Below, one piece after another: positions 41,438 to 64,000 of a stretch of 64,000 bases of DNA. Under the pieces are notes generated by a model that was given only the letters and a program-made list of their open reading frames with translations, had not been told where the DNA came from and did not search any database. The translations under genes and the position numbers were made by a program. Origin of the DNA: a virus; the UHGV virus genome UHGV-0084588, one strand, 5' to 3'. The first letter of the stretch is position 1, and each line of letters starts with the position of its first letter.

Positions 41438-41497
41438 TTTGAAAAAGTATGGGGGTACTCACTCCCCTCCTCGCATCTTTCAAAAGGTGGGGGTAAA

Positions 41498-42010: not shown

Positions 42011-42162
42011 CTAATTGGGGTAAAACGACAACTAATGCTAGTAAAATAAGAGTTAGTGAATTCGTAATTCAATAATTTTTTATAGAAAGGCTGATTTATT
42101 AGAATCGGAGGGGGTAAGATGTTGCTAGAAACATTTCACCCCCTACCATAGGGAGTAAGCTT

Positions 42163-50505: not shown

Positions 50506-51354
50506 ATGTCTCTTACGTCAAAACAGAAACTGCTAAAACTCATCAACACTGAAAACAATATTGTTCCGCCATTGACCTTCAGTGATGTTGATATCGGCGA
50601 ACCTACTGGTACTGGGGTTGATACCCAGGTGGTTCTGACTTCTAAACTCAAAGGCGATGAGTCTACTACTTTAACGGTGACTTACCATCGTCGTAATTTG
50701 CCAGAATACCTAACAGGCGAGTTGGTATTCGGTAACGACGGTGTTGTAACTGCTGCAGATTTGCTTAATGCAATCAACGCAAAATACGATTTAAATATTC
50801 TGCCGTCAGATATCGTTGATGCGAAAGTTGAAGGTAAAACCCACCAACTTGCCGCTAACGAGAAATCCTACGAGTGGTGTGGCGAAGTGACACTTACGCT
50901 ACGCGATCCTATTGATCTGGCTAAACTGCTACCTGTTACTCAATTAGAAAACCTGGTAGAGTATCCGTCCACCAAGAAAGGTAACGCTGCGGTTTATTCT
51001 TATCCGATTGACTTCACCGCAGAAAAAGATTACCTTGATCCGATTACCATTAACGACACCGTAGACTTAGTAGAGTTAGCTACTAAACTGACTAACGTTG
51101 TTGACGAGAAATGGGTAAGCGTACCTAAGAACGCTGCTAATAACTTGTTCGGTGCTAAGGTTATCTACGATGGCCCTACCGCAGGTTTCGAAGGCGCAAA
51201 TGCGAAGTACACGCGTGTGCTGGTACTCGCCCTAAGCGGTATGTGTTCTAACCTGACCGGTAAACTGTTAATTCACTTTAACGGAACCGATCGTCCGAAG
51301 TCGAAGATTGAATTAGCCAAGACTAATTCGGTCTTACCGGGATTCTTAGATTAA
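50506..51354 (+). CDS. member of a six-copy paralogous protein family, possibly structural (282 aa)
   Basis: N-terminal pattern L..LIN..N......T..DV..GEP.....G..T.V.LT.........(Y/H).R shared with 51368, 54511, 55107, 35448 and 42163. Confidence 0.55.
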   Translation: MSLTSKQKLLKLINTENNIVPPLTFSDVDIGEPTGTGVDTQVVLTSKLKGDESTTLTVTYHRRNLPEYLTGELVFGNDGVVTAADLLNAINAKYDLNILPSDIVDAKVEGKTHQLAANEKSYEWCGEVTLTLRDPIDLAKLLPVTQLENLVEYPSTKKGNAAVYSYPIDFTAEKDYLDPITINDTVDLVELATKLTNVVDEKWVSVPKNAANNLFGAKVIYDGPTAGFEGANAKYTRVLVLALSGMCSNLTGKLLIHFNGTDRPKSKIELAKTNSVLPGFLD

Positions 51355-51367
51355 GAGGATTACAGTA

Positions 51368-51844
51368 ATGACCAGTCAAGAAACTATCTTCGACCTTATT
51401 AAAAAGGCTAACCCAGACGCCGAGCTCGACACCGCCAAAGTCACATTGGGTGAGCCCGTCGTAAGTACCGGTACGTACAACACCGAAATTACGGTTGCGC
51501 CGGTGAAGAATCTCGGTTATGTTAATAAGCAAACGTTCCAGTATAACCGCATTGATGCAGGTTTGTATTTCCTCAACGTATTGCCGAAACTGTTAGTTGA
51601 AACAGCCACCACGACTGCGGACTTGCTGCCTGTAATTAACGAGCAGTATGGCTTAACCCTTACCGAAGACGATGTGTGGGTAGAGCAGGTTGGTGCGTTA
51701 CCGCTAGACGGCAGTGCAATCGAGCACGGTATTTTCTTCCGCCCAGAGTGTCTAACCTGGGTCGGTGGTTTTACAGTGCGTGTTGCGCGTAAACCGTCTG
51801 TCGAGACACCGCCAGCTAAGCCATCGCGCGCTAAGAAGAAATAA
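51368..51844 (+). CDS. member of the same paralogous family (158 aa)
   Basis: Family pattern as above; terminator downstream. Confidence 0.55.
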   Translation: MTSQETIFDLIKKANPDAELDTAKVTLGEPVVSTGTYNTEITVAPVKNLGYVNKQTFQYNRIDAGLYFLNVLPKLLVETATTTADLLPVINEQYGLTLTEDDVWVEQVGALPLDGSAIEHGIFFRPECLTWVGGFTVRVARKPSVETPPAKPSRAKKK

Positions 51845-51848
51845 CTAC

Positions 51849-51884
51849 AGGGTGGGGTAATCCCACCCTCTTTTCTTTTTTTGT
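51849..51884 (+). terminator. rho-independent terminator before the lysis cassette
   Basis: GGGTGGGG-taat-CCCACCC followed by tcttttctttttttg. Confidence 0.5.
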
Positions 51885-51906
51885 GTAAAAAGAGGAGTTA
51901 AACAAA

Positions 51907-52497
51907 ATGGCCGAACGTTGGACTAAAGAAGGTATTATTGAATCAAAAACAGATTTAGAGGGTGGGTACGTGAACGACCCTGACGATAAAGGTGGGGAAA
52001 CCTGTCACGGGGTAACACTGACAACTGCACGCGAATACGGGTACAAAGGAAGAATGAAAGATCTGACCCGTGCGCAAGCGTTTGATATTTACGATCGTGG
52101 TTGGTGGAAGAAACTTAAACTCGATGAGATTTTCGCTATCTCGCCGATACTCGCAGACCGGATGTTTGATTTTGGTATTAACTCTGGCCGTGTTAACTGT
52201 GTGAAATCATTACAACGTATTCTCAACGTTTTAAATAACGAAGGGAAACTTTACGCAGATATTGACACCGACGGTGGCATGGGCCCTAAAACGCTAGGTG
52301 CCCTGAATGCTTATCTGAATTACCGTAAAGGCGAGGGATTAGGCATCTTAATCTTTGCGTTAATCTCACACCAGGTAACCTACTACACGGAAATCTCCGA
52401 AAAGCGTAAGAAGAATGAAAAATTCGCTTACGGCTGGTACGGACGCGTGTACAGGGAAATGCCGGATTATGTAGTGAAGGCGGGGTTAGTAAAATGA
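51907..52497 (+). CDS. endolysin, glycoside hydrolase family 108 muramidase with peptidoglycan-binding C-terminal domain
   Basis: N-terminal EGGYVNDPDDKGGETCHGVT is the hallmark GH108 motif; the C-terminal half resembles the associated PG-binding domain. Confidence 0.8.
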   Translation: MAERWTKEGIIESKTDLEGGYVNDPDDKGGETCHGVTLTTAREYGYKGRMKDLTRAQAFDIYDRGWWKKLKLDEIFAISPILADRMFDFGINSGRVNCVKSLQRILNVLNNEGKLYADIDTDGGMGPKTLGALNAYLNYRKGEGLGILIFALISHQVTYYTEISEKRKKNEKFAYGWYGRVYREMPDYVVKAGLVK

Positions 52498-52613
52498 ATT
52501 GGTTTGCTAAACTCTTAGCACTATTGTGGAAAGCGTTAACGTCTGGACGGAAACGTAAAGACGAAAAGCGTGGGTACGAATTTTTCTGGTTTCTATAAGG
52601 GAAGGTGTGGGTA

Positions 52614-53279
52614 ATGGAGAAGCTTCAATATAAACGTTTAGACAATAAGTGGTTTGTATTAACGGAGGATTACCATTATCCGTTTACGTTACGCGAGATT
52701 TATCACGACCACGTACACTTAGACCGTGCGGTTTATTTAACGGGTGTATTGCCTGACACGCAACTGTGGTTAACAGCACCGAAAGGGTTCGTTACCGATT
52801 TAGCGTCAATTCCTGATCACCTCCAGGGAATTTTCCATCCTGACGGACCGTGGGCACCTGCGGCCTGTATTCACGACTTACTCTATCAAAAATGCAACAC
52901 AGAGCGTAGCTATCCCATGACACCGGGTGGTAACGTTTCGCGTTTTATCGATAAAGAGTTCTCTGACTTAACTTTCCTGCGTATTATGCAGTCGTTGGAA
53001 ATCTCGCCTTATATCTGCCAAACATTTTATAAGGCTGTTGTTGAATTCGGCTGGGATGCCTACGTAGATCCTAATGCAAAGCCATCCTACAACACTAACG
53101 CGTTTCGTACGTTAGATTACAATCGAAACTATTTATTCGTTCGCGAGTTTAAGGAACCTGCAATCCCTGACCACGAACGTATTGATATCACCACAGATTG
53201 TCCCGTTAATGTCAAATACCTGAACATCAAACGGGCATTTCTGTCTGGGAGGGAAGATGTTTCATCCAAATCCGAGTAA
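52614..53279 (+). CDS. DUF1353-like phage protein
   Basis: GFVTDLASIP...HD.LY resembles the DUF1353 signature as I recall it; ATG at 52614 preferred over the track start 52605. Confidence 0.4.
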   Translation: MEKLQYKRLDNKWFVLTEDYHYPFTLREIYHDHVHLDRAVYLTGVLPDTQLWLTAPKGFVTDLASIPDHLQGIFHPDGPWAPAACIHDLLYQKCNTERSYPMTPGGNVSRFIDKEFSDLTFLRIMQSLEISPYICQTFYKAVVEFGWDAYVDPNAKPSYNTNAFRTLDYNRNYLFVREFKEPAIPDHERIDITTDCPVNVKYLNIKRAFLSGREDVSSKSE

Positions 53280-53772
53280 CTTTAAACTCAGAGAGTTAGT
53301 ACCACAGTCCTATATTGCCAAATACGGTGATTCCGCAATTCGGTTTATGAATCCGTTGTTAATGATTTCCCTACAACAGATTCGTAACCGTTTCGGTAGA
53401 ATGGTGATTAACTCAACTGCCGCACAACAGCGCGGACTAAGAACCTTAGATTTCTTTATTAATCAAGAAAAGCCTAAGGGTGGTAGTTATAAACAACGTG
53501 CGTTGCAGCTTTACGCCGATTCAGGAAGTCAACACAAATTCGGTAACGCTATTGATGCAACGTTGTTGGATAGCACCGTAAAACAGGTTCACGACTATAT
53601 CGCTGCTAACCCTGACGAGTTTCCGTTCATTCACTTTATTGAATGTGATATCAGTTGGTTACACATCGACGTTCGTAACCAACCTAACATTACTTTCTGG
53701 TCACCAAACCGTGGCACTGTGAAGGTTGTTAAGCAAAAGCCAATCGATTGGAGCGCCTTAGTCGAGATTTAA
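53257..53772 (+). CDS. peptidase M15-like cell-wall hydrolase
   Basis: SQHKFGNAIDA fits the S.H..G.A.D zinc-binding motif and WLHID fits the second His motif of M15/VanY-type peptidases. Confidence 0.55.
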   Translation: MFHPNPSNFKLRELVPQSYIAKYGDSAIRFMNPLLMISLQQIRNRFGRMVINSTAAQQRGLRTLDFFINQEKPKGGSYKQRALQLYADSGSQHKFGNAIDATLLDSTVKQVHDYIAANPDEFPFIHFIECDISWLHIDVRNQPNITFWSPNRGTVKVVKQKPIDWSALVEI

Positions 53773-53855
53773 CTATTTCTAAGGTGTTTATACCTTATTT
53801 TGTATAAAGACGCTTAGAATGCGTTTTACGCACGATTTGGCGGTTAAAATGAATA

Positions 53856-53892
53856 TACCCTACTCCCGTTAAGGAGTAGGGTACTTTTTATT
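53856..53892. terminator. bidirectional terminator between convergent genes
   Basis: TACCCTACTCC-cgttaa-GGAGTAGGGTA with a flanking A-run and ctttttattg; lies between 53257-53772 (+) and 53888-54379 (-). Confidence 0.65.
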
Positions 53893-54379
53893 GTTCCGCA
53901 GGATGGAGCATTGTTCCAGTGTCAGGCGCTACACCTTCTATACAGCGGAAGAAAGTAATGCCTTTACCATCGCCCGTTTTATATTCTAAAGTAGAATACG
54001 CAAATGTTGGTGTTTTTGAAAGCAAACCATTTACACGGTAGTAACGTTGTCCCGTGATAGGATCAATATTCCCATTAACTTTACCTAATAAATCTTTATA
54101 AAGTTGGGGCGACTCAATCTTACCATTTGGCCAAGTGGCTACCCAATTAGCACCAGTATCGACTACGGTTACTGAGCCTAACATTAGATTAGTCGAGCTG
54201 ACGACAGGTTTGTAATTTGCAAAATCTTGCTCTACACCCATGCAGGTGTAAATAACCATGTCGTGTGGCTCCACCGGCACAGTCGAGAATTGGCCGTTAC
54301 CATTTGGTTGTAAGGCACATCCTGCTAATGAAAAAACACCAAGCATAACGATAAGAAAACGCTTTATCATACTTTTCAC
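53888..54379 (-). CDS. lipoprotein (163 aa)
   Basis: Signal peptide with lipobox LAGC (MKSMIKRFLIVMLGVFSLAGCALQ); lone minus-strand gene between plus-strand genes; bidirectional terminator downstream. Confidence 0.65.
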   Translation of the reverse strand: MKSMIKRFLIVMLGVFSLAGCALQPNGNGQFSTVPVEPHDMVIYTCMGVEQDFANYKPVVSSTNLMLGSVTVVDTGANWVATWPNGKIESPQLYKDLLGKVNGNIDPITGQRYYRVNGLLSKTPTFAYSTLEYKTGDGKGITFFRCIEGVAPDTGTMLHPAEQ

Positions 54380-54434
54380 CTTTTTTATAAAAAGTTAAAA
54401 AAAATATTTTTACAGACAACCCTTACTGCCGACT

Positions 54435-54463
54435 GTCATAACAATTAACACCACTTCTATAAT
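54435..54463 (+). promoter_or_regulatory. sigma70-like promoter candidate
   Basis: Perfect -10 TATAAT (54458-54463) with a weak -35 gtcata at 17-bp spacing, about 45 nt upstream of 54511. Confidence 0.3.
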
Positions 54464-54510
54464 CCGAACAATACTATGCAATCCACCCTGCCAACCACGA
54501 GGTAAATACG

Positions 54511-55041
54511 ATGGCTAAAACCTTCCAACAGCAACTTATTGACGCTGTTAATACCAAAAACAGTACCCTGGACCCCGCACTCACCGTAGCTGATGTTGAC
54601 TTTGGTGCTGTTGCTGAGTTCACCGGAGAAGCTGGCCGCAACACTAAAATTACCCTGACCGCCAAGGAAGAAAGCCAGCACTTCAAGGGCGAGAAAGAAT
54701 TCCACTATACTCGTCTTTCATGCGACATCGTTGGTGAAGTTGAAGTAACTGCACCTGCTACCGATTTCGATTCAGCAGCGAAAATCCTGGCGAAAGTTAA
54801 CGCAGCCATGGCTGAGAAAGGGTACACCGATGACGAGTTCGGTGAAAACGACCTGCAAAGTATTTCTCGTGAAGAAGAAGGCAAAACCATTTACGTAGTA
54901 ACTGTTGTGGCCGGACACCTGAAGTTCCTGCCAGGCACTGTTGCAACGTATAAAGTTACTCCTCCGGCTCCTGAGAAAGTAGCACTGGACGGTCTGGAAG
55001 GTGAACTGGATAGCTTCACTGCACCGCTTCCTAAAGAGTAA
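54511..55041 (+). CDS. member of the six-copy paralogous family, codon-biased (176 aa)
   Basis: Family pattern; host-like codon bias suggests high expression; a sigma70-like -10 element lies upstream. Confidence 0.6.
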   Translation: MAKTFQQQLIDAVNTKNSTLDPALTVADVDFGAVAEFTGEAGRNTKITLTAKEESQHFKGEKEFHYTRLSCDIVGEVEVTAPATDFDSAAKILAKVNAAMAEKGYTDDEFGENDLQSISREEEGKTIYVVTVVAGHLKFLPGTVATYKVTPPAPEKVALDGLEGELDSFTAPLPKE

Positions 55042-55106
55042 TTGAACCGGGGGGGGGGTAACCTCCCCCGATATTTCTTTAACCCGCATTTTAAGGATTT
55101 AAGATA

Positions 55107-55637
55107 ATGGCCGCTACTAACCAGATGATGTTGGTCGCGCTTTATAATGCTGCTAACACTGAGCTACCACATCAGATTACTGATAAAGAAGTGTCCTTTG
55201 GTCTCCCTACTGCGCTGGAAGGCAAAAGTAAGAATACCAAAGTTACCATGACTGCACTACCGGGTTCTGAGAATTTCAAAGGCGCAATCGAGCTGCATTA
55301 CGATCGTCTGGAGCCGGGTGTTGTAGGACGTATTGAACTAACTGACGATTTGTCTCGTTGGGAAGATCAAAACGAATTGCGCGCATGGTTACAATATTAC
55401 ATCAACAAAGTAAAACCTGACGACGCTATCGCACCTGGTGACGTTGTGTACAGCACCGAAGACCAGAAAGACGAACATGATAACGTCACACTGCGTACGG
55501 TAACGTGCACCGTTACTGAAAAGAACCTCCGTTATAAACCGGGTGTAATGGCAACTTTCGTAATTACGCCGAAAGTTGTTGACAATCGTATTGACCTGGC
55601 CACTACCAACGGCGAGCTGGACGGCTTTACGTCCTAA
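55107..55637 (+). CDS. member of the six-copy paralogous family (176 aa)
   Basis: Family pattern; bidirectional terminator downstream. Confidence 0.6.
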   Translation: MAATNQMMLVALYNAANTELPHQITDKEVSFGLPTALEGKSKNTKVTMTALPGSENFKGAIELHYDRLEPGVVGRIELTDDLSRWEDQNELRAWLQYYINKVKPDDAIAPGDVVYSTEDQKDEHDNVTLRTVTCTVTEKNLRYKPGVMATFVITPKVVDNRIDLATTNGELDGFTS

Positions 55638-55638
55638 G

Positions 55639-55691
55639 AAAAATAAAAAAATACCTACCTCCCGTAATAGGAGGTAGGTATATCTTTTTTT
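55639..55691. terminator. bidirectional terminator between convergent blocks
   Basis: aaaaataaaaaaa-TACCTACCTCC-cgtaata-GGAGGTAGGTA-tatcttttttt; lies between 55107-55637 (+) and 55701-56372 (-). Confidence 0.65.
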
Positions 55692-55700
55692 CACTGTCGA

Positions 55701-56372
55701 TTACAGCCCTTGCTCTAACGCAAACGCTTTTATCGAATCGTAATCACGCGCCTCAGCCCAAGCCCTGACTTCTTTTTTCTGCTCAGACATTGCGTGGTGT
55801 AGTCTTTGATCACGCGCAACGATTGCTGCCATCAGCGCTTTGCACTGCTCTAACGAAAAAGGTTCGATGCGGGTGTTAGCCGTGTCCAACCAATAACTCG
55901 GTGCTGTTTCAGACTGGATATACTGGCCCAACATTTGACGAGACGTTTCGTCCGCTTGGAAGTAGCGACCATCGACTTCAATATATCCGTGGCGCTGATC
56001 TTCATAACGGTGTTCCATCTCCAACATGATTTTCTGGATATCGAGATAGATGTAACGCGCCGTCGAACGCATATTCGTTCGAATCTCTTCCAGGTTAATC
56101 TCCAGAACGTCAGTAATGAATTCTTTTGCTTTGTTCAGTGTAAACTTCGACTCGATAGGAGACATTTCGTAAGTTTTCATCTGGGCTAAAGCTTCTTCAT
56201 CACTCATCCCTTCAATCAACTTGTAGTGCAGTAATGCACAGAACCCCGTACGTCCACGGTCTTCGTTACCTACACGTTCCATGTAGTTACCATGGCGGTC
56301 AATTGGTAGATCGTGCGCGAAATAACGTGCGCGAATCTCTTCTTTCGTTAAGCTTTTGTTAGAAGCAGACAT
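55701..56372 (-). CDS. hypothetical protein, last gene of the radical SAM operon (223 aa)
   Basis: ORF overlapping the upstream gene; HD..H-like motif near the N-terminus is too weak to call. Confidence 0.5.
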   Translation of the reverse strand: MSASNKSLTKEEIRARYFAHDLPIDRHGNYMERVGNEDRGRTGFCALLHYKLIEGMSDEEALAQMKTYEMSPIESKFTLNKAKEFITDVLEINLEEIRTNMRSTARYIYLDIQKIMLEMEHRYEDQRHGYIEVDGRYFQADETSRQMLGQYIQSETAPSYWLDTANTRIEPFSLEQCKALMAAIVARDQRLHHAMSEQKKEVRAWAEARDYDSIKAFALEQGL

Positions 56373-56938
56373 TCTTCTTCTCCAACCATACCTAATTCTT
56401 GCAGCAAGCCAAAATCAATCAACTGGAAGGTTTCAGAGAGATCGTTTGACCACACCACGTTTGCAATGTCGCGTTCTTCATCGGATAATTGCGGTAACAC
56501 ATTTTCGTTGAACGTCTGATGCTCTACGTAATAAGCATCGTAGATAGACGTAGAACGCAAGCAACGGATTGGCAGTCTTGGGAAAGACACCGCTAATGCA
56601 GCAATAGATGCGCTGCTCGGATTCTCCGCAGAATAGCGAAGCAATTCGATTTTGTGGCGCGGATAGTCCAGTACGCGTTGCTCGAAACCCGGATTACGTT
56701 TTTCGATTTCAACAACGGACTCATGACCTGTTTCTGTACAGTAAACGGGAATCATCACGTTTAGCCCGTACTTAATTAACAGAGGTTTAATCTCATCTGT
56801 AAAGTCTTCGCCAGGGATAATGGCGTGAACGTTATAGAGTTTATGTTTGCGCAGAAAACGCTCAACCAGATGGAGTTTACGCTTCGTAAAATTGTGGATC
56901 AGAATTGATTTCATTATTTGCCTCAGTAGGTTGTGCAT
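56348..56938 (-). CDS. hypothetical protein in the radical SAM operon (188-196 aa)
   Basis: ORF overlapping the rSAM gene stop; an alternative ATG at 56914 has SD gagg. Confidence 0.5.
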   Translation of the reverse strand: MHNLLRQIMKSILIHNFTKRKLHLVERFLRKHKLYNVHAIIPGEDFTDEIKPLLIKYGLNVMIPVYCTETGHESVVEIEKRNPGFEQRVLDYPRHKIELLRYSAENPSSASIAALAVSFPRLPIRCLRSTSIYDAYYVEHQTFNENVLPQLSDEERDIANVVWSNDLSETFQLIDFGLLQELGMVGEEECLLLTKA

Positions 56939-58211
56939 TTAAAGCACGTTTAGCTTGCTCACGCTCACGCGTACATTTCGGACAGTAACAAACAGACGAA
57001 TCGTGCAGTGACGATGCGTGGACGGTACCCGTACGTTGACGCCAGTATTCTGCTGCCATCAGTTTTGCGGTCGTCCAGCCACATTGACGACGTTCAGCGT
57101 GGTACGCCTTACGGTCTTCCAGTGTCCCTTCACCGTTTTCGTAGGAAGCAGCTGCACAGCTGCCACAACCGTGTTTCATCGGACAGCCTAAGCACGTTTC
57201 AGGGTAGTTAGTATATTGCGTCTGAATCTCTTCCAGCAGCTTCCCGTCATCTAAACTAACGAACTCGCGACCAACTAATTCAAACACCGCAGAACGTGAC
57301 GTTACCGTTGACATAAAACGGTTACAACCGTATACCTTGCGGTCAAAACCTAAACAGGTCATGAACGTTAACGTACCACAGAACGGACGTAGGCGATCTG
57401 GGTTATAACGATGCGTGTCGTCATACAGCAGCTTATCGCGCCAATCTGGGTCCCAAATCTGACGGAAATCCAGACCTTCGGGAATGATATGTGACAACAC
57501 GTTACGTGGATTGGTGTGCAACCCTTTCTCAATCCAATAATCCATCACGTCGATCATCTGCAACGCAATATCCGTTGCCATGCTCCGTGGAAGAATATCT
57601 TCGTACGTAACGTTACCTGAAATCGTACCGCCACCGGCAACATCGATTAGCGATTTCATACTCGCTGCATAATGCGGTAACGTTTCGGTCGTAAAGGTTG
57701 CCTTGATACCCAGTTCAGCAATACCGACTTCTTTTAAGTAGTTATAGCCACGAACAGCGGCTTCGTAAGAACCTTGACGCGTCGTGGTAAAGATACGATA
57801 GCGGTCATGGACTTCTGGTAAACCGTCGATAGAAACACCGATGGAGAGTTTGTCTTTCCAACGCTCAACAATCTCACGGTTTAACGGGCGATCTAACAAC
57901 GTACCGTTAGTTGAGATACTGAACATATACGGGCGATTGTGCTCCTTACACAACTGTTCTGCGGTTTCGAACGCCGCTAACAGCAGTTTCGGTTGCATAA
58001 AAGGCTCACCGCCGATGATATCAATAATGACGTCGATGTTCGGAATATCTTTATCGCGCTCAAAACACGCGTGTAAGAAATCCACGATATCCGCCGCTTT
58101 GTTATTACGCGGATACTTACGTTCGTAACAATACTCACAGTCTAAGTTACAAGACAGATTCGTTACCACCTGGTAAGTACGTTGAGAACGTGGTGCTTCA
58201 TTATTGCTCAT
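56877..58211 (-). CDS. radical SAM enzyme with C-terminal SPASM-like Cys-rich domain (444 aa), candidate peptide maturase
   Basis: Canonical CNLDCEYC (CxxxCxxC) near the N-terminus; C-terminal clusters FCGTLTFMTCLG...GCNRF and CLGCPMKHGCGSCAAA fit the auxiliary Fe-S pattern of SPASM/twitch domains. Confidence 0.75.
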   Translation of the reverse strand: MSNNEAPRSQRTYQVVTNLSCNLDCEYCYERKYPRNNKAADIVDFLHACFERDKDIPNIDVIIDIIGGEPFMQPKLLLAAFETAEQLCKEHNRPYMFSISTNGTLLDRPLNREIVERWKDKLSIGVSIDGLPEVHDRYRIFTTTRQGSYEAAVRGYNYLKEVGIAELGIKATFTTETLPHYAASMKSLIDVAGGGTISGNVTYEDILPRSMATDIALQMIDVMDYWIEKGLHTNPRNVLSHIIPEGLDFRQIWDPDWRDKLLYDDTHRYNPDRLRPFCGTLTFMTCLGFDRKVYGCNRFMSTVTSRSAVFELVGREFVSLDDGKLLEEIQTQYTNYPETCLGCPMKHGCGSCAAASYENGEGTLEDRKAYHAERRQCGWTTAKLMAAEYWRQRTGTVHASSLHDSSVCYCPKCTREREQAKRALNAQPTEANNEINSDPQFYEA

Positions 58212-59118
58212 CTTTGCTTATCCTTTTACGCTCTGCATAAATCACGCGTTTAATGTACTCGTAAGCACCTACTCCAATAGAGCAAGCGAGCTGATTGCAG
58301 CCACCGTTTAAGATAGCTGGGGCATTCTGAAGCTGATGTTCTGTTCCATCTGCGTTCAAATACAACTCTTCGCTACAAACATTACACTCGTTTTCGAAAA
58401 TCTTGCTGACAGACACGCCGCACGATTCTCCAGTTTGGACGTTCAACCGTTCCATATTCTCCTGAATTTTTAAATAGCCATAAACGAAGTTCATGACGTG
58501 ATCAGGAGACAATGGTTTTGGCATCTGCGCATCAAACATTAGAGAAAACGCACGGGGACGATAGTGGTACATCGCACGATGCAAATCCACAATATCTTCA
58601 TACCAGCGCTTATCCGCTAACTGGTCACGCGTAATCACAGCCCAGGTTTGGAAATTATCGAGTTCGTATAACGCTTCCAATGCTTCGTGGCTATCCTCTT
58701 CAATAAAGCGCATAAAAGGGCGCTCAGAACGCTTGTAGCCATCAATTGATACAAACACATGCTCAAAGTCTTTTAGCAGCGTAAGATGCGATTTACGCAG
58801 TTTTAAGCCGTTGGTATACAAGTGATGCTCAAGGTGCGGATGAGACACTTTCAATTCGTTAACGAAATCCTCAATCTTACGTTGGACGAGTAGCGGCTCG
58901 CCACCGGTCCAATGTATTTCCTTAATAGCCGGATTCTCTTGTAGTAATTCCAGGATACGTTCGCGTTGAAAAGCACGAGACGAATCTTCACGATTCATGT
59001 AGTAGGCTCCACCGCAGAAACTACAATCTAGGTTACACTTAGACGTCGTAACTACGGACAATATAGTGGGTTTATCGTACAACTTCGTCGAGATCCTGGA
59101 TTCCACATTGTCTATCAT
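58201..59118 (-). CDS. radical SAM enzyme (305 aa)
   Basis: CNLDCSFCGG (CxxxCxxC) motif; GGEPLL glycine-rich SAM motif; C-terminal CNVCSE...GGCNQLACS Cys cluster; overlaps the downstream rSAM gene by 11 nt. Confidence 0.7.
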   Translation of the reverse strand: MIDNVESRISTKLYDKPTILSVVTTSKCNLDCSFCGGAYYMNREDSSRAFQRERILELLQENPAIKEIHWTGGEPLLVQRKIEDFVNELKVSHPHLEHHLYTNGLKLRKSHLTLLKDFEHVFVSIDGYKRSERPFMRFIEEDSHEALEALYELDNFQTWAVITRDQLADKRWYEDIVDLHRAMYHYRPRAFSLMFDAQMPKPLSPDHVMNFVYGYLKIQENMERLNVQTGESCGVSVSKIFENECNVCSEELYLNADGTEHQLQNAPAILNGGCNQLACSIGVGAYEYIKRVIYAERKRISKDEQ

Positions 59119-59138: not shown

Positions 59139-60026
59139 TTAAATATAATCGATGGCGAATAAAGGATCTTCGTCGAAGTTAACACCTGGTTTTAAAATCA
59201 GTGGTGAATTATACGCTTCCAGTAAACGGTTAAGTTCGTTGTAGCGGCTATTCATCCGTTTGAGGTCTTCTAAGGTTACAACACGGTCCAGCATCGGTTT
59301 AACCGCTGCGGCTTCCTCGTCAGTCAATTTAACTTTCGACAACAGGAAACTGACGAGTTTAGAAATGTCCGCTTCGGTGGCTGGACTCTGACCGAAACGT
59401 ACCTGAACCATGTGCTGCATCCACGGTTTACGAATGCGTTTCGTAATCACGTGTTCGTCAGTAATGGCTTTCCAAACCGAACGCTCACGAATCCATTCAA
59501 ACTTATAGCTGTACGCCATTAAGTCAGCCAGATGCGTAATTCCGAGTTCTTGATAACCTTCAATATCGATATACGGTTCCGTATCAAAATACTCTTTGGT
59601 ATCCTTTTCAACCAAAGCGTAGTAGTTAGGGAACGCACCCAGGTAGTCTGGGCTCCACCAACGACGGGCCATCGGTTTAGCATCGAGTTCTTCAAACGGC
59701 GTGAACATAAGTTCTAAGTCAACTGTATTATTTAACACACCGTCGCTAAAGAAATATTTGCCGTCGATAAGTTTACCGCGTTGTGAGTTATCACCGGTAA
59801 AGACAACAATGCTTTCGCCAACCATATCACGAATTTTAAACGTGTTCTCAACCGTAAAGTTGTCACGATTAGCGATATGACGGCCGCGCACTTTCGGCCA
59901 TTCCCCAGGAATCATGGCAATTAAACGTACGTCGTCGGCAAGATGGTGACGTACCGAATCAGGGGAAGAGATGTGAAGTGGATGATTGAACGTTGTCGTA
60001 TATGCAAGATGTAGATCGTTCTTCAT
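59139..60026 (-). CDS. hypothetical protein between the peptide genes and the rSAM genes (295 aa)
   Basis: ORF in operon; function unassigned (could be a leader-recognition or processing protein). Confidence 0.55.
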   Translation of the reverse strand: MKNDLHLAYTTTFNHPLHISSPDSVRHHLADDVRLIAMIPGEWPKVRGRHIANRDNFTVENTFKIRDMVGESIVVFTGDNSQRGKLIDGKYFFSDGVLNNTVDLELMFTPFEELDAKPMARRWWSPDYLGAFPNYYALVEKDTKEYFDTEPYIDIEGYQELGITHLADLMAYSYKFEWIRERSVWKAITDEHVITKRIRKPWMQHMVQVRFGQSPATEADISKLVSFLLSKVKLTDEEAAAVKPMLDRVVTLEDLKRMNSRYNELNRLLEAYNSPLILKPGVNFDEDPLFAIDYI

Positions 60027-60094: not shown

Positions 60095-60301
60095 TTACCT
60101 TCCCCCCGCACCTTTACTACAGCTACCACTGCACGCCCAGCTACAACTGCCGTTACAGTTATAGTGGGTTAATGGTAATCCTGCCAAGTTATTCGTCGTG
60201 GACACCGTACCTTGGTTAGCGATGTAGTTATTCGCGTCTGAGGTTTTGATGTAGCCTTCAACCTGACCGATTCTGTCTCGAATATTTTTGAGGGAAATCA
60301 C
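60095..60301 (-). CDS. Cys-rich peptide, short paralog (68 aa), candidate RiPP-type precursor
   Basis: GTG start with SD ggaggt; hydrophilic leader then core CNGSCSWACSGSCSKGAGGR. Confidence 0.55.
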   Translation of the reverse strand: MISLKNIRDRIGQVEGYIKTSDANNYIANQGTVSTTNNLAGLPLTHYNCNGSCSWACSGSCSKGAGGR

Positions 60302-60311
60302 TTCTCACCTC

Positions 60312-60707
60312 CTATCGTCCTGTACACGCTGAGCAACCGCCAGTACAGCTACTGGAACACGATGCTGTGCACCCGCCAGAACAAGTGCCTGAGCACAGGT
60401 TAGCACACCCACCTGAACAACTCCCCGAGCACCCTGAACACGAAGTGGAACACCCTGACGTACAGTTTGCAGAACATGAGGAACCACAACCGCCGGACGC
60501 GTTCCCAGTACACCCACCAGAACAACTCGAACAGGTAAACGAACACGTACCCGCACAGTCGTAATGCGCACGATTCTGACCGCCGAACAGGTCTGCGTTA
60601 TTCGTACCTTTATTGCGGATATAGTTCTGTACACCCGTGGTATTTTTCAGTGCGATACTATCGACGTTATTAAGACGTCTTACTAATTCAGATAAACCGA
60701 CTGCCAT
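60312..60707 (-). CDS. Cys-rich CXXX-repeat peptide (131 aa), candidate RiPP-type precursor
   Basis: ATG with SD gggggaag; about 50-aa leader then an 80-aa core with roughly 22 Cys at mostly 4-residue spacing in a Gly/Ser/Thr matrix. Confidence 0.6.
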   Translation of the reverse strand: MAVGLSELVRRLNNVDSIALKNTTGVQNYIRNKGTNNADLFGGQNRAHYDCAGTCSFTCSSCSGGCTGNASGGCGSSCSANCTSGCSTSCSGCSGSCSGGCANLCSGTCSGGCTASCSSSCTGGCSACTGR

Positions 60708-60716
60708 TTCTTCCCC

Positions 60717-61109
60717 CTATCGTCCAGAGCATCCGCCGGAGCAAGCACCCGAACAGTTATGCGAACAACGTCCAGTACAACTTCCGGTACAGGTACTTGT
60801 ACAACTGCTAGAACAACCGCCAGAACAGCCAGAGCATCCTGAACAGTTACCCCCACAGGACGAAGAACAGCTACCCACACAAGCGGCTGAACAGTTACCT
60901 GAACAGCTAGAGCAACCGTGACTACATCCGTTAGAACATGTCCACGAACACGTTCCTCCGCAGTCTAAACGTGAAGGTGTCCAACCAGAAAACGAATCTG
61001 CCGCGTTATGCGCTTTCGATGCGACCTGCGCATCGACACGAGGGCCGGTAGCGACTGTATTTTCTACTACGGTTAACCGATCGCGCATTTGTTTAACACT
61101 AATCGCCAT
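60717..61109 (-). CDS. Cys-rich CXXX-repeat peptide (130 aa), candidate RiPP-type precursor
   Basis: ATG with SD aggaag; leader then core CGGTCSWTCSNGCSHGCSSCSGNCSAAC... with roughly 21 Cys, ending GR. Confidence 0.6.
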   Translation of the reverse strand: MAISVKQMRDRLTVVENTVATGPRVDAQVASKAHNAADSFSGWTPSRLDCGGTCSWTCSNGCSHGCSSCSGNCSAACVGSCSSSCGGNCSGCSGCSGGCSSSCTSTCTGSCTGRCSHNCSGACSGGCSGR

Positions 61110-61174
61110 TACGCTTCCTTAAAATTAAAATAGAGGAGGAACCAGCCATAAGCATAGTTCCTCCTGTAATAAAA

Positions 61175-62374
61175 TTATCTCGTACCTGCTTCTGCCTGAA
61201 CGTCATCACGGGACGTCAAGTTAGCGTTAACGTGCACTGAAGCCTGAACCACACCGCCGTATTTCTTGTGCAGGTAACCTGTGTGTGGGTTATCCGCCGC
61301 AATATGGTTTTGTAGGTTCTGATTCGCCTGACTGATTGCGTTCGTGTTATTCGCAACCTGTTGTTTAAGCGCATCCAAGTTTTGTTGCAGATTATCAATT
61401 TTCTGATCGGTCTCATTACCCCGCTGTTCTAACGCAGCAATGCGCTGAATCGCTTGGTTGAGCTTGGTGTTCAGATCGTTGATATTTTTCTGTAACTGTA
61501 ACACTAACGAGTTTAGGTTCGCCAGTGCCAGTGCCATTTTCTGGTAGTTTTGTGCAACGACGTTAAGTTGGTCGTTCCACGCTTCCAGAGATTTGACAAC
61601 AGCATCAATACGTTTTCCTAACGCTTCGTCCGCTTTCTTCAATGCGTTGATTTCAGTAATCGTTGCATCAATGGCAGACTGCACGTCGCGGATAAGCGCA
61701 CGGATTTCCGTTTCCGTTAACCCGTTAACCTGATGAATATCCAGATGGTGGACATTACCAGTGGAGTTAATGTGCGCGTTCAGCGCGTCCAGGAAATCGT
61801 TTTTCAGGCTATCGAGAATCGCTTTGATGTTCTCAAGCTGTACAGCATCGCCCGCAGTTATCGCATCTTTAATACCGGCGAGCACTGTAATGATGTATTC
61901 GAAGCCGTAGATATCGCCGACGTCTTTATACGTTGGTGCCGAAGGAAACGTGTCCGGCACATTTCGCAAGTCTTTAAAGCCAACAGTTCGATTATCGAGA
62001 TTCAACTCGGCAATCGCTTGCTCAATCGCGGTCACAACTGCAGACTGTGGACCACCAACTACTTGCGCCGATACCGTGATATCGGTCGGAATCGCGGTGT
62101 TCGTTACAACAACCGCCATTACTACTTCCCGGTTCTTCGTCAATTTCTCGTAAGCCGGGTGTGCAAAAATCAGCTCATAGTCCGTTCCACGCTCATACGT
62201 CGCTCCAGGTCGATTGGCAACCCGCAAGCGGAACGTATCGGCATAAAACGGGCCATCAGGGAAAGCAAACGCACGGTTAACTTTACCTGTACCTAACGTA
62301 ATCTGACGCTCCACGGCGTTAGAGGTTAGGGTTCCCGTTAAATCTAAAGGGTATTGGTATACAATGGAGGCCAT
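61175..62374 (-). CDS. fibre-like protein with long coiled-coil segment (about 400 aa)
   Basis: Track ORF 61175-62482 trimmed to the ATG at 62374 (SD aaggagag); central Q/N/L/A-rich heptad region typical of fibrous phage proteins. Confidence 0.55.
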   Translation of the reverse strand: MASIVYQYPLDLTGTLTSNAVERQITLGTGKVNRAFAFPDGPFYADTFRLRVANRPGATYERGTDYELIFAHPAYEKLTKNREVVMAVVVTNTAIPTDITVSAQVVGGPQSAVVTAIEQAIAELNLDNRTVGFKDLRNVPDTFPSAPTYKDVGDIYGFEYIITVLAGIKDAITAGDAVQLENIKAILDSLKNDFLDALNAHINSTGNVHHLDIHQVNGLTETEIRALIRDVQSAIDATITEINALKKADEALGKRIDAVVKSLEAWNDQLNVVAQNYQKMALALANLNSLVLQLQKNINDLNTKLNQAIQRIAALEQRGNETDQKIDNLQQNLDALKQQVANNTNAISQANQNLQNHIAADNPHTGYLHKKYGGVVQASVHVNANLTSRDDVQAEAGTR

Positions 62375-62414
62375 GGCCACTCTCCTTAATCCGAGACGTC
62401 CTTGTCTCGTGGCG

Positions 62415-64000
62415 TTAAGATGTAAACATAAGATTGAACTGGAGCTTATCGATATCGCGAGTTTGTGCTGGGTTAACCGCATCGTACGTGGTTGCCACGT
62501 AGACCGTTAACGTGCCGTCAGAAAACGCGGTTTTCACCGGTGGTGTAGTCCCTGTCTGTCCATCAGTTACAATGACGACAGGTTGAGCCGGGAGTTGACG
62601 AAACTGACTCTTAACCGCTTTATACACCAAACCAGATTGTGCCGCTTGCTCTGTGGCGGTGTACACGATAAACGGTGTGTCGATATCTGTCTGTTTAATG
62701 ACAGTGTTCGTCTCAACGTCAATCAGCTGAACAGCACCAAATTTGGTCCGGTAACTATCGTATTCATTTTTTGGAATGACAAACGTAGCATGAAGGCGGA
62801 CTTCGGCGGCTGGCTTAAATCCCGCGTGTTCTTTTTCCAGGTAACTGTTAGCAGTTAGCGTTACTGTCTGTTCAGTCATCGTACCGCCAGACTGATTTAG
62901 CCCGTAACGAACTTGAGTTATACCTGTCGGGGCCGCAAGCCTGATTTTCAGTCGACGATTAGTAGTACCAGGATCGCCAGGTACTTTAACACGCAGACTC
63001 AATGCCAGATATGCATACTCGCCGGTAGTCGGTTTCGTATACGCACCCAACCACTTCATGTTCGCGGTTGCTGCTTGTTTGTTCTCAGAAGCAGTAGCCG
63101 CTGCAACGTTCGCAGCAACCGCTTTCTGCCAGAACTGGTCAGCGCAGTTCTCATACGCCACCCTGCTGATACTTTTATAACCTGAATAGGTTTCCTGTAC
63201 CGGCAACCTGGGCCGCGTTGCAATCCCGGACAACGTATTCCATTTCTGGCCATCGACATACCCAGCACCCTTGCTCGCAGATGCTGTAATGGCTTTAACG
63301 GGTTTATTAACCACTGTTAATAGTGGACCAGTTTTCCTGTCGAACGCCTGCGCCACATCGTGCTGATCAACAACCGAGGCATGATTTTCCAGCTCTTTTA
63401 CACGACCTAACCGTTTTACTTTATCGATACTGATATCCGTAATACGGTTCGAATCAGTGGTTACTGTCCCAACAAACAGTCTCGACGAGGTATCAGCTAA
63501 CTGCTCTAAACCGATGCGGTATTGGGCAGTAGAACCGACCACTTCAGCATAAACGTAGAATGTCTGGTTAGCGTGATTAGTCGGGAATTCATCGCTTAAA
63601 TCAACGGACCATCTTGGAACGGTATATCTTTTATTTCCAAAACTTAACTCGGTTTCCTCCGTCAGATAGAAATTCCAACCGCTCTGTGTTTGTACGCCGC
63701 CAATAATAATCTTATCGATAACAGTATATTTTTTGTTAAACAAATCAGAGATTCTATACTGTTCGCCACCGAGATACAACTCGTTTAAATCTTCCGAGTT
63801 ACAAGTCAATAGCGCGATGCCCGAGAGATCGGGTATATAGACTTCAGATGTATTATTCAGCGTATACGTATAGCCCCACGCCCGATGAATTTCGCCGGTA
63901 AACCATTCTCCTTTTTTAGTCAAGTTTATCCCAAAAGCAAAAGAAATCTCTGATCCTACAAGATTCCCGCCAACCAGGTTATGTATTGAGAATCTGAACT
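62415..64000 (-). CDS. large structural-type protein, 5' end outside the window (partial)
   Basis: Reading frame stays open from 62415 to the window edge; the TTG at 63923 given by the track is probably not the true start. Confidence 0.5.
   Translation of the reverse strand, partial: FRFSIHNLVGGNLVGSEISFAFGINLTKKGEWFTGEIHRAWGYTYTLNNTSEVYIPDLSGIALLTCNSEDLNELYLGGEQYRISDLFNKKYTVIDKIIIGGVQTQSGWNFYLTEETELSFGNKRYTVPRWSVDLSDEFPTNHANQTFYVYAEVVGSTAQYRIGLEQLADTSSRLFVGTVTTDSNRITDISIDKVKRLGRVKELENHASVVDQHDVAQAFDRKTGPLLTVVNKPVKAITASASKGAGYVDGQKWNTLSGIATRPRLPVQETYSGYKSISRVAYENCADQFWQKAVAANVAAATASENKQAATANMKWLGAYTKPTTGEYAYLALSLRVKVPGDPGTTNRRLKIRLAAPTGITQVRYGLNQSGGTMTEQTVTLTANSYLEKEHAGFKPAAEVRLHATFVIPKNEYDSYRTKFGAVQLIDVETNTVIKQTDIDTPFIVYTATEQAAQSGLVYKAVKSQFRQLPAQPVVIVTDGQTGTTPPVKTAFSDGTLTVYVATTYDAVNPAQTRDIDKLQFNLMFTS

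Follow-up and report, generated by a model that had tools for sequence, protein, structure and literature searches.

Three short open reading frames (ORFs) with a cysteine repeat lie in tandem on the minus strand of the giant phage genome UHGV-0084588, within a stretch of 64,000 nucleotides (hereafter the window). The locus raises two questions, i.e. whether these ORFs are real genes rather than an accident of repetitive DNA, and if so, whether they encode the leader-core precursors of a modified peptide, as was proposed in the initial annotation, or something else. As both the opposite strand and other frames of the same DNA are also open, we first address the reading frame, and then the operon in which the genes lie, their relatives in other phages, and the most likely role of their products.

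Reading frame and paralogy of the three genes

A listing of the ORFs of the window confirmed the positions and strand of the three genes, which we call A, B and C:

60717-61109, minus strand: protein A (130 aa, ATG start), with the N-terminal segment MAISVKQMRDRL...NAADSFSGWTPSRLD, followed by 81 aa of C-[S/T]-G-x repeats with 21 Cys, ending CSGR.
60312-60707, minus strand: protein B (131 aa, ATG start), with an N-terminal segment containing ...KGTNNADLFGGQNRAHYD, followed by 81 aa of Cys repeats with 20 Cys, ending CTGR.
60095-60301, minus strand: protein C (68 aa, GTG start), of the same N-terminal design, ...NNLAGLPLTHYN, but followed only by CNGSCSWACSGSCSKGAGGR (20 aa, 4 Cys).
60637-60921, plus strand: Pro/Glu/Gln-rich mirror ORF (94 aa), not a gene; the same applies to 60367-60564 on the plus strand (65 aa, Pro/Glu/Gln-rich) and to the shifted Val/Arg-rich ORFs 60305-60634 and 60683-60880 on the minus strand.

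Each protein has a non-repetitive N-terminal segment of about 48 aa, a conserved junction (Y-x-C-x-G-x-C-S-W/F-x-C-S) and the repeats. The observation made in the initial annotation, that of three tandem paralogous genes with a shared signature at the start of a repetitive core, is confirmed, and the similarity is far beyond chance: A and B are 37% identical (E 2e-16), C and B are 35% identical (E 2e-8), and all three match a single PHROG, phrog_6085 (E 2.7e-37, 8.6e-43 and 1.2e-25 for A, B and C, respectively). The core-start signature C-x-G-[TS]-C-S-[WF]-x-C-S is present in all three, and is conserved in every orthologue as well as in distant phages. The spacing between cysteines is 4 residues in about 80% of the intervals and otherwise 3.

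Some details of the initial annotation, however, needed to be corrected. All three proteins end in G-R in this window, but the ends vary among the orthologues (SGR, SGP, SGPM, SGPNS, SGPTR and GAGNR). The 9-mer ctatcgtcc, which had been described as near-identical stop and intergenic sequence of the three genes, occurs only after A and B (60717-60725 and 60312-60320), and is the coding end itself (GGA-CGA-TAG, Gly-Arg-stop) rather than intergenic sequence, while C ends in GGA-AGG-TAA. The description of the DNA as extremely low-complexity is overstated, since Tandem Repeats Finder reported only short, weak arrays of period 12/24 (72-86% matches); the periodicity is at the amino-acid level. Furthermore, the duplication is ancient: all three paralogues have 1:1 orthologues in five phage genera, so that copy number and lengths do not vary much between phages, contrary to the variation that had been expected of a substrate family.

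That the minus-strand Cys frame is the coding frame is supported by several lines of evidence. A Shine-Dalgarno-like AAGGAAG lies five bases before the ATG of A, GGGGGAAGAA lies directly upstream of the ATG of B, 9 nt after the stop of A, and GAGGTGAGAA lies upstream of the GTG of C. In an alignment of the orthologues of A from 11 loci, the variability at third codon positions is 0.59, compared with 0.23-0.29 at the other positions (0.59-0.64 versus 0.20-0.29 overall), and the Cys columns are essentially invariant among the orthologues. In the Cys-rich part pN/pS is 0.33 for A and 0.29 for B, which is the lowest of the six frames. The orthologues of C are highly conserved.

An alternative is that the plus-strand Pro/Glu/Gln-rich or the shifted Val/Arg-rich ORFs are the true genes; translation of the plus-strand frames had been named beforehand as a finding that would refute the observation. 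These ORFs are open for 65-109 codons, and are annotated as CDS in pEa_SNUABM_29, Phobos, CR5, Caitlin, Kwan, Asesino and SPN3US. Nevertheless, the mirror ORFs are a predictable by-product of the codon composition: they share third codon positions with the sense frame, and on the opposite strand Cys TGY reads as CAN, Ser TCN as GAN and Gly GGN as CCN. All alternative frames have a higher pN/pS than the Cys frame, and four of the five are above 1. Their coordinates and lengths differ from record to record, with no orthologous start or stop, whereas the Cys frame alone runs through the non-repetitive N-terminal part, has ribosome-binding sites, and has homologues fused to fibre proteins. We therefore regard this alternative as all but excluded, and are nearly certain that A, B and C are real genes in the Cys frame.

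The operon and its radical SAM enzymes

The three genes head an operon, whose other genes and flanking elements are as follows:

61175-62482, minus strand: upstream coiled-coil fibre-like virion protein, the homologue of SPN3US gp167.
61134-61165, minus strand: hairpin (AGGAGGAAC...GUUCCUCCU) with a U-rich tail, between the upstream fibre-like gene and A (dG -20.8 kcal/mol, z -2.7).
59139-60026, minus strand: accessory protein (295 aa), the homologue of SPN3US gp165, with no detectable structural relative; an inferred substrate-binding or chaperone partner of the radical SAM enzymes.
58201-59118, minus strand: small radical SAM enzyme (305 aa), with CNLDCSFC and a C-terminal C-x2-C...G-C motif.
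56877-58211, minus strand: radical SAM/SPASM enzyme (444 aa), the inferred thioether-forming maturase of the Cys repeats.
56348-56938, minus strand: 196-aa protein without assigned function, which overlaps the end of the SPASM gene.
55701-56372, minus strand: DUF4376 protein (223 aa), the last gene of the operon.
55651-55681, minus strand: terminator-like hairpin, a 13-pair stem followed by the T-run TTTTTTATTT, that closes the operon.

The upstream fibre-like protein matches phrog_2163, annotated as virion structural protein (5e-104), with weaker hits to tail and tail-fibre PHROGs. The 196-aa protein matches phrog_7988 (1.2e-77), without any Pfam, NCBIfam or PDB match, and is conserved in the jumbo-phage clade, being syntenic in all the related phages. 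The DUF4376 protein (PF14301, 3.9e-10) matches phrog_8169, with weak hits to tail and tail-fibre PHROGs, and a PDB sequence search with it returned nothing. No RNA family was found in the window with Rfam, and a scan for sigma-70 promoters gave fewer sites than in shuffled sequence, and is thus uninformative; these phages are thought to use their own RNA polymerases. The operon order and synteny hold in Seoulvirus, Erskinevirus, Machinavirus, Derbicusvirus and Wellingtonvirus, i.e. five genera of SPN3US-like jumbo phages.

The small radical SAM enzyme matches Pfam Radical_SAM (8.5e-15), but has only generic NCBIfam hits, all far below cut-off, the third-ranked being HxsC; its orthologues sit next to the SPASM enzyme in unrelated phages. 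The two best family matches of the SPASM enzyme are the CXXX-repeat-target maturase TIGR04115 (124.7 bits, E 6e-36) and the thioether-forming PapB (NF047865, 111.7 bits, E 4e-32), although both scores are well below the curated cut-offs of 350 and 340 bits, respectively. Its prophage homologues score 113-155 bits on TIGR04115 and 128-163 bits on PapB. Across 12 homologues, the radical SAM CX3CX2C motif (C21, C25 and C28) and eight auxiliary Cys of the SPASM type (C278, C286, C296, C340, C343, C349, C352 and C377) are invariant. The closest, and only, solved structure detectable by sequence is that of CteB (PDB 5WGG, E 7.7e-13; see also 5WHY). An automatic annotation of one relative calls the enzyme AlbA-like, which would fit a classical RiPP reading (see below).

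Comparison with the closest known systems shows partial resemblances. The CXXX-repeat radical SAM target system (TIGR04114 repeat peptide with TIGR04115 maturase; Pfam PF27846, tSAM_targ_Cxxx_rpt), in which the chemistry of TIGR04115 is not known to have been characterised, likewise has tandem Cys-x-x-x repeats next to a radical SAM/SPASM enzyme. By direct inspection, 15-17 of the 19-20 Cys intervals are 4 residues long, while A and B score 15.9 and 13.2 bits on TIGR04114, below its cut-off of 20; a small homologue from another locus, L018, scores 26 and passes it, and P0171, a relative from a further contig (see below), carries a weak PF27846 hit. The window locus differs in having a second radical SAM enzyme, a dedicated accessory protein with no detectable structural relative, and a substrate that has a tail-fibre-type N-terminal part or, elsewhere, is fused to a tail fibre, the module being embedded in phage tail modules. 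PapB, which makes the ranthipeptide freyrasin, forms thioethers between Cys sulfur and the Asp beta-carbon in repeated C-x3-D motifs, and one enzyme acts iteratively on many repeats with Cys at i, i+4 spacing. However, Asp and Glu, the acceptors PapB uses, are absent from the cores of A, B and C, which are made of C, S, G and T with a few N, A, H and R; moreover, the substrates are 68-131 aa or a whole fibre protein, and no leader peptidase was recognised. CteB is a SPASM enzyme that makes Cys thioethers in the SCIFF peptide (thermocellin), a peptide of about 45 aa with six Cys, unlike the present proteins with 4-21 Cys. The window enzyme scores only 56 bits on TIGR03974 against a cut-off of 425, and its alignment starts at model position 106, so that it lacks the N-terminal region of about 100 residues. 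Finally, the His-Xaa-Ser system (repeat peptide HxsA, paired radical SAM enzymes HxsB and HxsC, and HxsD) also combines a short-period repeat substrate, a SPASM radical SAM enzyme, a second smaller one and an extra protein, but the hits to HxsB (75 bits) and HxsC (47 bits) are far below the cut-offs (370 and 268), the repeat residue differs, and Hxs has no known phage or tail association.

These enzymes bear on the possibility that the C-x3-C repeats bind Zn, Fe or Cu, or Fe-S clusters, in a metallothionein-like way or along a fibre axis, with the radical SAM enzymes acting on something else. In favour of this view, the repeats contain about 25% Cys at regular spacing, and other fibre tips are stabilised by metal ions at H-x-H motifs, which precede the Cys domain in a Deferribacter prophage fibre (see below). 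However, the Cys domain co-occurs strictly with radical SAM/SPASM enzymes of the peptide-modifying type across unrelated phages, and the nearest families of the enzyme all modify Cys-containing peptides; hence metal binding seems very unlikely.

The cysteine-repeat domain in tail-fibre genes of other phages

The same module (Cys-repeat domain, then accessory, then one to three radical SAM genes) was found beside tail-fibre genes in P2-like, T7-like and siphovirus-type phages, and the link was reached from both the enzyme and the protein side. Homologues of the SPASM enzyme at 25.9-39% identity were found in four kinds of context. In a P2-like Campylobacter prophage the module lies between the fibre gene and the sheath gene, and the fibre (Pfam Phage_tail_fib, 1.8e-40) ends in ...GCNGCSGSCSGSCSSGCTACSGCSGSC. 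In a Deferribacter prophage it lies after a GpJ-like gene, with a 302-aa H-x-H-repeat fibre ending KATNADQLGGQAGSYYRCSDCSWTCSSSC..., to which the junction of B is 42% identical over 48 aa. The remaining homologues lie in metagenomic phage contigs beside T7-tail-fibre-like genes, and in a gut phage contig. Another gut contig, L021, turned out to be an ordinary bacterial SCIFF locus and was rejected as an instance of the module, and tblastn with both the window enzyme and a fused T7-like enzyme found no cultured phage outside the SPN3US-like clade. The homology of the accessory protein to the Campylobacter and T7-like versions is weak, and no homology was detected to the 209-aa protein at that position in the gut-phage contig.

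From the protein side, the relative P0173 lies in a T7-like contig with the order Phage_T7_tail, a collagen-like protein, the Cys-repeat protein, an accessory and a fused double radical SAM enzyme, while P0171 lies in a contig with the same long-long-short trio; an equivalent short third paralogue occurs in the distant locus L023. A profile search matched 576 representative clusters, and in 127 of the 155 sequences examined (145 newly listed hits plus ten from an earlier search, which include the alignment members) the Cys-rich region ends within 15 aa of the C-terminus. Of 33 proteins with the junction motif, 32 hit phrog_6085. Of the 25 PHROGs most often matched by these proteins, 15 are annotated as tail fibre, tail collar fibre, tail protein or collagen-like minor tail, and the other ten carry no annotation. 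The Cys domain with its junction is the C-terminus of proteins whose N-terminal parts hit Pfam Phage_tail_fib, PTR, Phage_T7_tail and Collagen, and many tail fiber protein PHROGs, and the alignment of A, B and C with these proteins extends into the pre-Cys segment. In the jumbo phages, the genes lie directly downstream of homologues of gp167-170, which are SPN3US virion proteins with no head assignment.

These results weigh against the classical leader-core reading, in which the radical SAM enzymes would install sactipeptide- or ranthipeptide-like thioether links, a host or unrecognised protease would remove the ~48-aa leader, and the cores would be released at lysis as diffusible bioactive peptides, for example against competitors or host functions. 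The small size of the proteins, the N-terminal helix shared by the three paralogues, which is also what a RiPP leader looks like, the Cys-rich C-terminal part of variable length, and the adjacent RiPP-type maturases are consistent with such a reading, although the AF2 model of B is uninformative (pLDDT 42), with only an N-terminal helix predicted. On the other hand, the putative leader aligns with the shaft-to-tip junction of real tail-fibre proteins, and the homologous Cys domain is fused in frame to bona fide tail-fibre proteins elsewhere. No peptidase, exporter or immunity gene was recognised among the operon proteins with Pfam, NCBIfam or PHROGs. In every context examined the module lies next to tail or tail-fibre genes, with the exception of L023, where flanking tail genes could not be identified, and it is fixed there across five genera. 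We therefore consider a diffusible peptide unlikely.

SPN3US virions have been analysed by LC-MS/MS (Thomas 2016, Ali 2017), and the published virion list includes gp167-173, which carry no head assignment, but none of gp161-166. This absence might be taken to support a diffusible product, or as evidence against a structural role, but it is nearly uninformative. The SPN3US records annotate no CDS for A or C and give B as gp166 in the wrong frame, so that a search database built from that annotation would not have held the real proteins, with tryptic peptides such as NTTNVQNYIR and ATNNADLFAGQGR for SPN3US B, and VQIVEANMATGPR for SPN3US A.

Another possibility is that the Cys-repeat proteins and domains, with their radical SAM partners, act only as folding or trimerisation chaperones of tail fibres, in the slot of P2 gene G or of the T4 gp38/gp57 class, and are absent from, or cleaved off, the finished virion. 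In the Campylobacter P2-like prophage the module does sit between the fibre and sheath genes, where the fibre assembly gene normally lies in P2; tail assembly chaperone genes are nearby in the jumbo phages; and C-terminal chaperone domains that are removed after assembly are known for other fibres. However, there is no protease or autocleavage motif, purifying selection acts along the whole repeat, and two radical SAM enzymes are an expensive way to make a disposable domain, and thus this possibility also seems unlikely.

A putative cross-linked end-module of tail fibres

Taken together, the interpretation in the initial annotation is only partly supported: the Cys frame is the coding frame, the genes are tandem paralogues, and substrates for one maturase fits the context, but the leader-core peptide and the variation in copy number and length are not supported. 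In our preferred reading, A, B and C are each a free-standing copy of a module that in many other phages forms the C-terminal end of a tail-fibre protein, consisting of a short helical segment, a conserved junction (N-A-x-x-L-x-G-x4-5-Y-x-C-x-G-x-C-S-W-x-C-S) and a run of C-[S/T]-G-x repeats. Our analysis establishes the genes, their frame, their conservation, their operon partners, and the link between this module and tail-fibre genes across unrelated phage types. The modification, its chemistry and the location of the products in the virion, in contrast, are inferred from enzyme families and gene context alone. In this view, the SPASM enzyme would convert the repeat cysteines into thioether cross-links to carbons of neighbouring residues, as its nearest characterised relatives PapB and CteB do, the second radical SAM enzyme would add a further modification, and the accessory protein would present the substrate, because the SPASM enzyme lacks the N-terminal region that the SCIFF-maturase model includes. 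That the three proteins are substrates of the adjacent enzymes is very likely, whereas thioether chemistry, and a virion or fibre component rather than a diffusible product, are each only somewhat more likely than not, as is the reading as a whole.

It is further inferred that the product is not cleaved or exported, but stays as a covalently stapled, redox- and protease-resistant element of the tail-fibre apparatus, plausibly an A/B/C heterotrimer docked through the shared N-terminal helix onto the gp167-170-type fibre proteins encoded just upstream. Thioethers would supply covalent links that, unlike disulfides, can form in the reducing cytoplasm where virions assemble. Phage tail-fibre tips and their maturation factors (T4 gp37 with gp38/gp57A, P2 H with G, and metal-stabilised H-x-H needles), and the isopeptide chainmail of the HK97 capsid as a precedent for covalent cross-links in virions, share with this module a position beside or within fibre genes, a C-terminal location on fibre proteins, dedicated accessory genes directly downstream of the fibre gene, or, if our reading is right, covalent or metal stabilisation of an exposed virion part. 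However, the Cys-repeat domain has no solved structure, and no radical SAM enzyme is known to have been reported in fibre maturation. Our literature searches on SPN3US, phage RiPPs, CXXX-repeat systems and radical SAM or thioether chemistry in tail fibres found no description of this module and no radical SAM enzyme in fibre maturation, the only hint being a remark that radical SAM cassettes vary within the host-recognition cluster of pelagimyophages (PMC7029224).

A broader possibility, which we put forward tentatively, is that many phages (jumbo, P2-like, T7-like, siphovirus-type and gut phages) build part of their tail fibres from a Cys-x-x-x repeat domain cross-linked by thioethers through dedicated phage-encoded radical SAM enzymes, i.e. 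that RiPP-type chemistry is used to mature a virion structural or host-recognition protein, with the domain existing as a free-standing A/B/C heterotrimer in SPN3US-like jumbo phages. We found no description of such a post-translational modification of phage particles.

On the practical side, gene callers systematically mis-annotate these genes, choosing the wrong frame or the antisense strand in most GenBank relatives, and the proteins have therefore been invisible to proteomics. If our reading is right, radical SAM/SPASM peptide-maturase chemistry, so far tied to small natural products and cofactors, is also used by viruses to staple an exposed structural protein covalently. It would explain a conserved, uncharacterised block of six to eight genes in a genetic model phage (SPN3US gp161-166 plus two genes that its records do not annotate), would define a widespread end-module of tail fibres, to whose profile the 576 representative clusters in public data match, and would offer a new kind of hyper-stable fibre or adhesin scaffold for engineering.

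Three paralogous Cys-repeat genes and their reading frame

The window is a jumbo phage of the SPN3US/phiEaH2 kind. A megablast search of the deposited-phage collection found only short or low-identity DNA matches, i.e. 72% over the radical SAM genes to Erwinia phage pEa_SNUABM_29 and otherwise small patches, while a 99%-identical radical SAM protein occurs in a Salmonella enterica assembly. One of these patches, at 40755-42011, is 78-91% identical in DNA to a region of RB49-like coliphages (JSE and relatives) that is annotated there as tail fibre, tail assembly or 'distal long tail fiber assembly catalyst', and to Escherichia phage CMS-2020a; it looks like a horizontally acquired fibre-tip cassette in a jumbo phage that otherwise has no close DNA relative in the collection. 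The observation of three tandem paralogous genes in the initial annotation held, and an ORF search located them on the minus strand as follows.

60717-61109 (-), gene A, 130 aa
60312-60707 (-), gene B, 131 aa
60095-60301 (-), gene C, 68 aa, GTG start

These genes are tightly packed, being separated by 9-10 nt, and the spacers hold the ribosome-binding-like sequences GGGGGAAGAA and GAGGTGAGAA, while AAGGAAG precedes A. Each protein contains a non-repetitive N-terminal segment of about 48 aa, predicted at low confidence to be helical over residues 5-33, a junction ending (H/Y)Y-x-C-x-G-x-C-S-W/F-x-C-S, and C-[S/T]-G-x repeats with 21, 20 and 4 Cys in A, B and C, respectively, in which the Cys spacing is 4 in about 80% of the intervals and 3 otherwise. 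A is 37% identical to B (E 2e-16) and C is 35% identical to B (E 2e-8), and all three fall into phrog_6085, which is annotated as 'unknown function'.

To determine which frame is read, we codon-aligned eleven orthologous loci from five genera. In the Cys frame, third positions vary 0.59-0.64 per pair, against 0.20-0.29 for positions 1 and 2, and pN/pS is 0.29-0.33 in the repeat part and 0.39 in the N-terminal part, the lowest of all six frames. The Pro/Glu/Gln ORFs on the plus strand share third positions with the sense frame, and are a mechanical consequence of the codons used, as Cys TGY reads as CAN (Gln/His), Ser TCN as GAN (Glu/Asp) and Gly GGN as CCN (Pro) on the opposite strand. A stop in that mirror frame would need a sense Tyr, His or Gln codon, and the repeats almost completely lack these, so the mirror frames stay open for free. 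It is therefore extremely unlikely that the mirror ORFs are the real genes. The initial annotation had described the DNA as of extremely low complexity; however, it is not a high-identity repeat, since Tandem Repeats Finder found only weak period-12/24 arrays. Likewise, the shared 'ctatcgtcc' after A and B, which had been taken in part as intergenic sequence, is Gly-Arg-stop (GGA CGA TAG).

The annotation of these genes in public records is chaotic. SPN3US gp166 is a +1-frame call over gene B, while A and C are not annotated in that phage; pEa_SNUABM_29, Phobos, CR5, Caitlin, Kwan and Asesino carry antisense CDS calls, and Kwan gp184 is a wrong-frame call. Most GenBank/RefSeq relatives thus annotate wrong-frame or antisense CDSs across the three Cys-repeat genes or leave them unannotated, and of the records examined only EC001 and Machina have all three right. 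The positions concerned in the relatives' loci (L numbers are our labels for the retrieved loci) are listed below.

L002, 7477-7812 (SPN3US gp166)
L001, 10260-10532 and 10767-10979
L005, 2135-2635 and 2693-2956
L004, 2377-2589
L007, 2224-2553 and 2608-2985
L011, 2291-2509
L009, 2374-2514

The operon and its conservation

Downstream of the three genes on the same strand lie, in order, the following features.

59139-60026 (-), a 295-aa protein, referred to here as the accessory protein
58201-59118 (-), a 305-aa radical SAM enzyme
56877-58211 (-), a 444-aa radical SAM/SPASM enzyme
56348-56938 (-), a 196-aa protein
55701-56372 (-), a DUF4376 protein
55651-55681 (-), a strong terminator-like hairpin

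Upstream, a hairpin with a U-run (61134-61165; dG -20.8, z -2.7) separates A from a coiled-coil fibre-like gene, the homologue of the SPN3US virion protein gp167. The 435-aa ORF at 61175-62482 overlaps the end of the upstream gene (62415-63923) by 68 nt, and its true start is probably Met36 (MASIVYQYPLDL...), giving the ~400-aa size annotated for this gene in SPN3US and its relatives. In addition, several plus-strand ORFs at 50506-55637 (282, 158, 176 and 176 aa) have similar N-termini, and the 176-aa ORFs correspond by position and size to SPN3US gp160, a 'paralog family B' head protein estimated at >300 copies per capsid. The 224-aa ORF at 52605-53279 corresponds by position to genes annotated 'tail assembly chaperone' in related phages.

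The best NCBIfam hits of the SPASM enzyme are TIGR04115, 'radical SAM peptide maturase, CXXX-repeat target family' (6e-36, 125 bits), and the ranthipeptide maturase PapB (4e-32, 112 bits), both of which are far below the curated cut-offs of 350 and 340 bits, respectively. The enzyme keeps CX3CX2C plus eight auxiliary Cys, and its only solved relative by sequence is the thioether-forming CteB. On the other hand, the small radical SAM enzyme gives only generic hits, including HxsC, and has a conserved C-terminal C-x2-C...G-C motif.

The whole block, including all three Cys genes with 1:1 orthology, is syntenic in Seoulvirus, Erskinevirus, Machinavirus, Derbicusvirus and Wellingtonvirus. The duplication is therefore old, and copy number and lengths are stable, which differs from the picture of a substrate family varying in copy number and core length that had been drawn in the initial annotation.

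Cys-repeat modules beside tail genes in other phages

More distant homologues of the SPASM enzyme (25.9-39% identity) all lie in phage tail modules. In a P2-like prophage of Campylobacter pinnipediorum (locus L014), the gene order is baseplate W, J and I, tail fibre, a 250-aa protein, the SPASM radical SAM enzyme, a small radical SAM enzyme, DUF1353 (7068-7433) and sheath, and the fibre (Pfam Phage_tail_fib, 1.8e-40) ends in ...GCNGCSGSCSGSCSSGCTACSGCSGSCSG... In a Deferribacter abyssi prophage, a GpJ-like gene is followed by a 302-aa fibre with HxHDxRYYTE repeats, which ends KATNADQLGGQAGSYYRCSDCSWTCSSSCTGSC... with 28 Cys, and then by a 250-aa protein and two radical SAM genes; this 250-aa protein is homologous to the 295-aa protein of the window (E 4e-12). 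Other metagenomic contigs show a PTR-repeat fibre with the same tail followed by three radical SAM genes (contig L016), uncalled ~79-aa ORFs (MSRFFSRPNQQGAGCSGCSGSC...) after T7-tail-fibre-like genes (contigs L017 and L018), and a gut-phage example (contig L020).

Starting from the proteins instead gives the same picture. The Cys-repeat protein P0173 lies in a T7-like contig with the order Phage_T7_tail, a collagen-like protein, the Cys protein, an accessory, a fused double radical SAM, and then SLT and terminase, while a second such protein, P0171, lies in a contig with the same long-long-short trio as the window. In this distant phage contig (L023, Logan SRR26596529, 5621-7457), in which flanking tail genes were not identified, the trio design comprises proteins of 122 aa, 119 aa and a short 69-aa third paralogue ending ...CGGSCSWTASGR, followed by an accessory protein and two radical SAM genes, with an Acb2/Tad1-hairpin gene nearby; one paralogue is always truncated just after the C-S-W motif.

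Furthermore, a profile search over 1.84 billion representative proteins found 576 clusters, from which we examined 155 sequences, i.e. the 145 newly listed hits plus ten from an earlier search, which include the alignment members. In 127 of the 155 sequences the Cys-rich region ends within 15 aa of the C-terminus. Of 33 proteins with the junction motif, 32 hit phrog_6085. Of the 25 PHROGs most often matched by those proteins, 15 are annotated tail fibre, tail collar fibre, tail protein or collagen-like minor tail, and the other ten carry no annotation, while Pfam adds Collagen, PTR, CBM_5_12 and Phage_T7_tail. The profile also finds (hits P0177-P0185, P0195, P0219; P0212, P0216, P0230, P0234, P0253) giant 1,460-1,800-aa proteins with a different junction (NNGC[RNK]A[TA]CMGLCTSGCYQ), as well as a group with an N-terminal RRxFFKK...LPxLG motif that looks like a Tat or lipoprotein signal; these are probably separate, possibly cellular, branches of the CXXX-repeat family.

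Relation to peptide maturases and tail fibres

The interpretation offered in the initial annotation is therefore partly supported. The idea that these proteins are substrates of a maturase is well supported, whereas their description as leader-core peptides is not, since the 'leader' aligns with fibre shaft and junction sequence, the 'core' is a fibre C-terminal domain elsewhere, and no peptidase or exporter was recognised in the operon. A diffusible RiPP thus seems unlikely.

The repeat and enzyme pairing itself is already known (TIGR04114/04115, now Pfam PF27846), and the proteins of the window already sit in a PHROG of unknown function; however, as the enzyme and the repeats fail the curated thresholds, they appear to represent a sister lineage rather than a member of that family. 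On the other hand, the systematic tie to tail fibres, the second radical SAM enzyme, the accessory protein and the free-standing trio were not described in any of the literature that we could search. Among deposited phage genomes the module is found only in the SPN3US-like clade plus unannotated gut contigs, which makes SPN3US, for which amber mutants and virion proteomes already exist, the natural test system.

While the genes and their genomic associations are read directly from the sequences, both the chemistry and the virion location are inferences, the former from the nearest families (PapB, CteB and TIGR04115) and the latter from genomic and domain context only. As the repeats lack the Asp/Glu acceptors of PapB, the acceptor would have to be Ser, Thr or Gly. 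It seems very unlikely that the repeats serve in metal binding instead. The published SPN3US virion list contains gp167-173 but none of gp161-166; since the SPN3US records hold no correct sequence for A, B or C, SPN3US proteomics could not have detected them, and this absence says nothing. A factor acting in assembly only is likewise considered unlikely. We therefore read A, B and C as free-standing tail-fibre end-modules, the Cys repeats of which would be cross-linked, most likely by thioethers, by the SPASM enzyme, with the second radical SAM enzyme and the accessory protein assisting, and the product of which would stay with the fibre apparatus.
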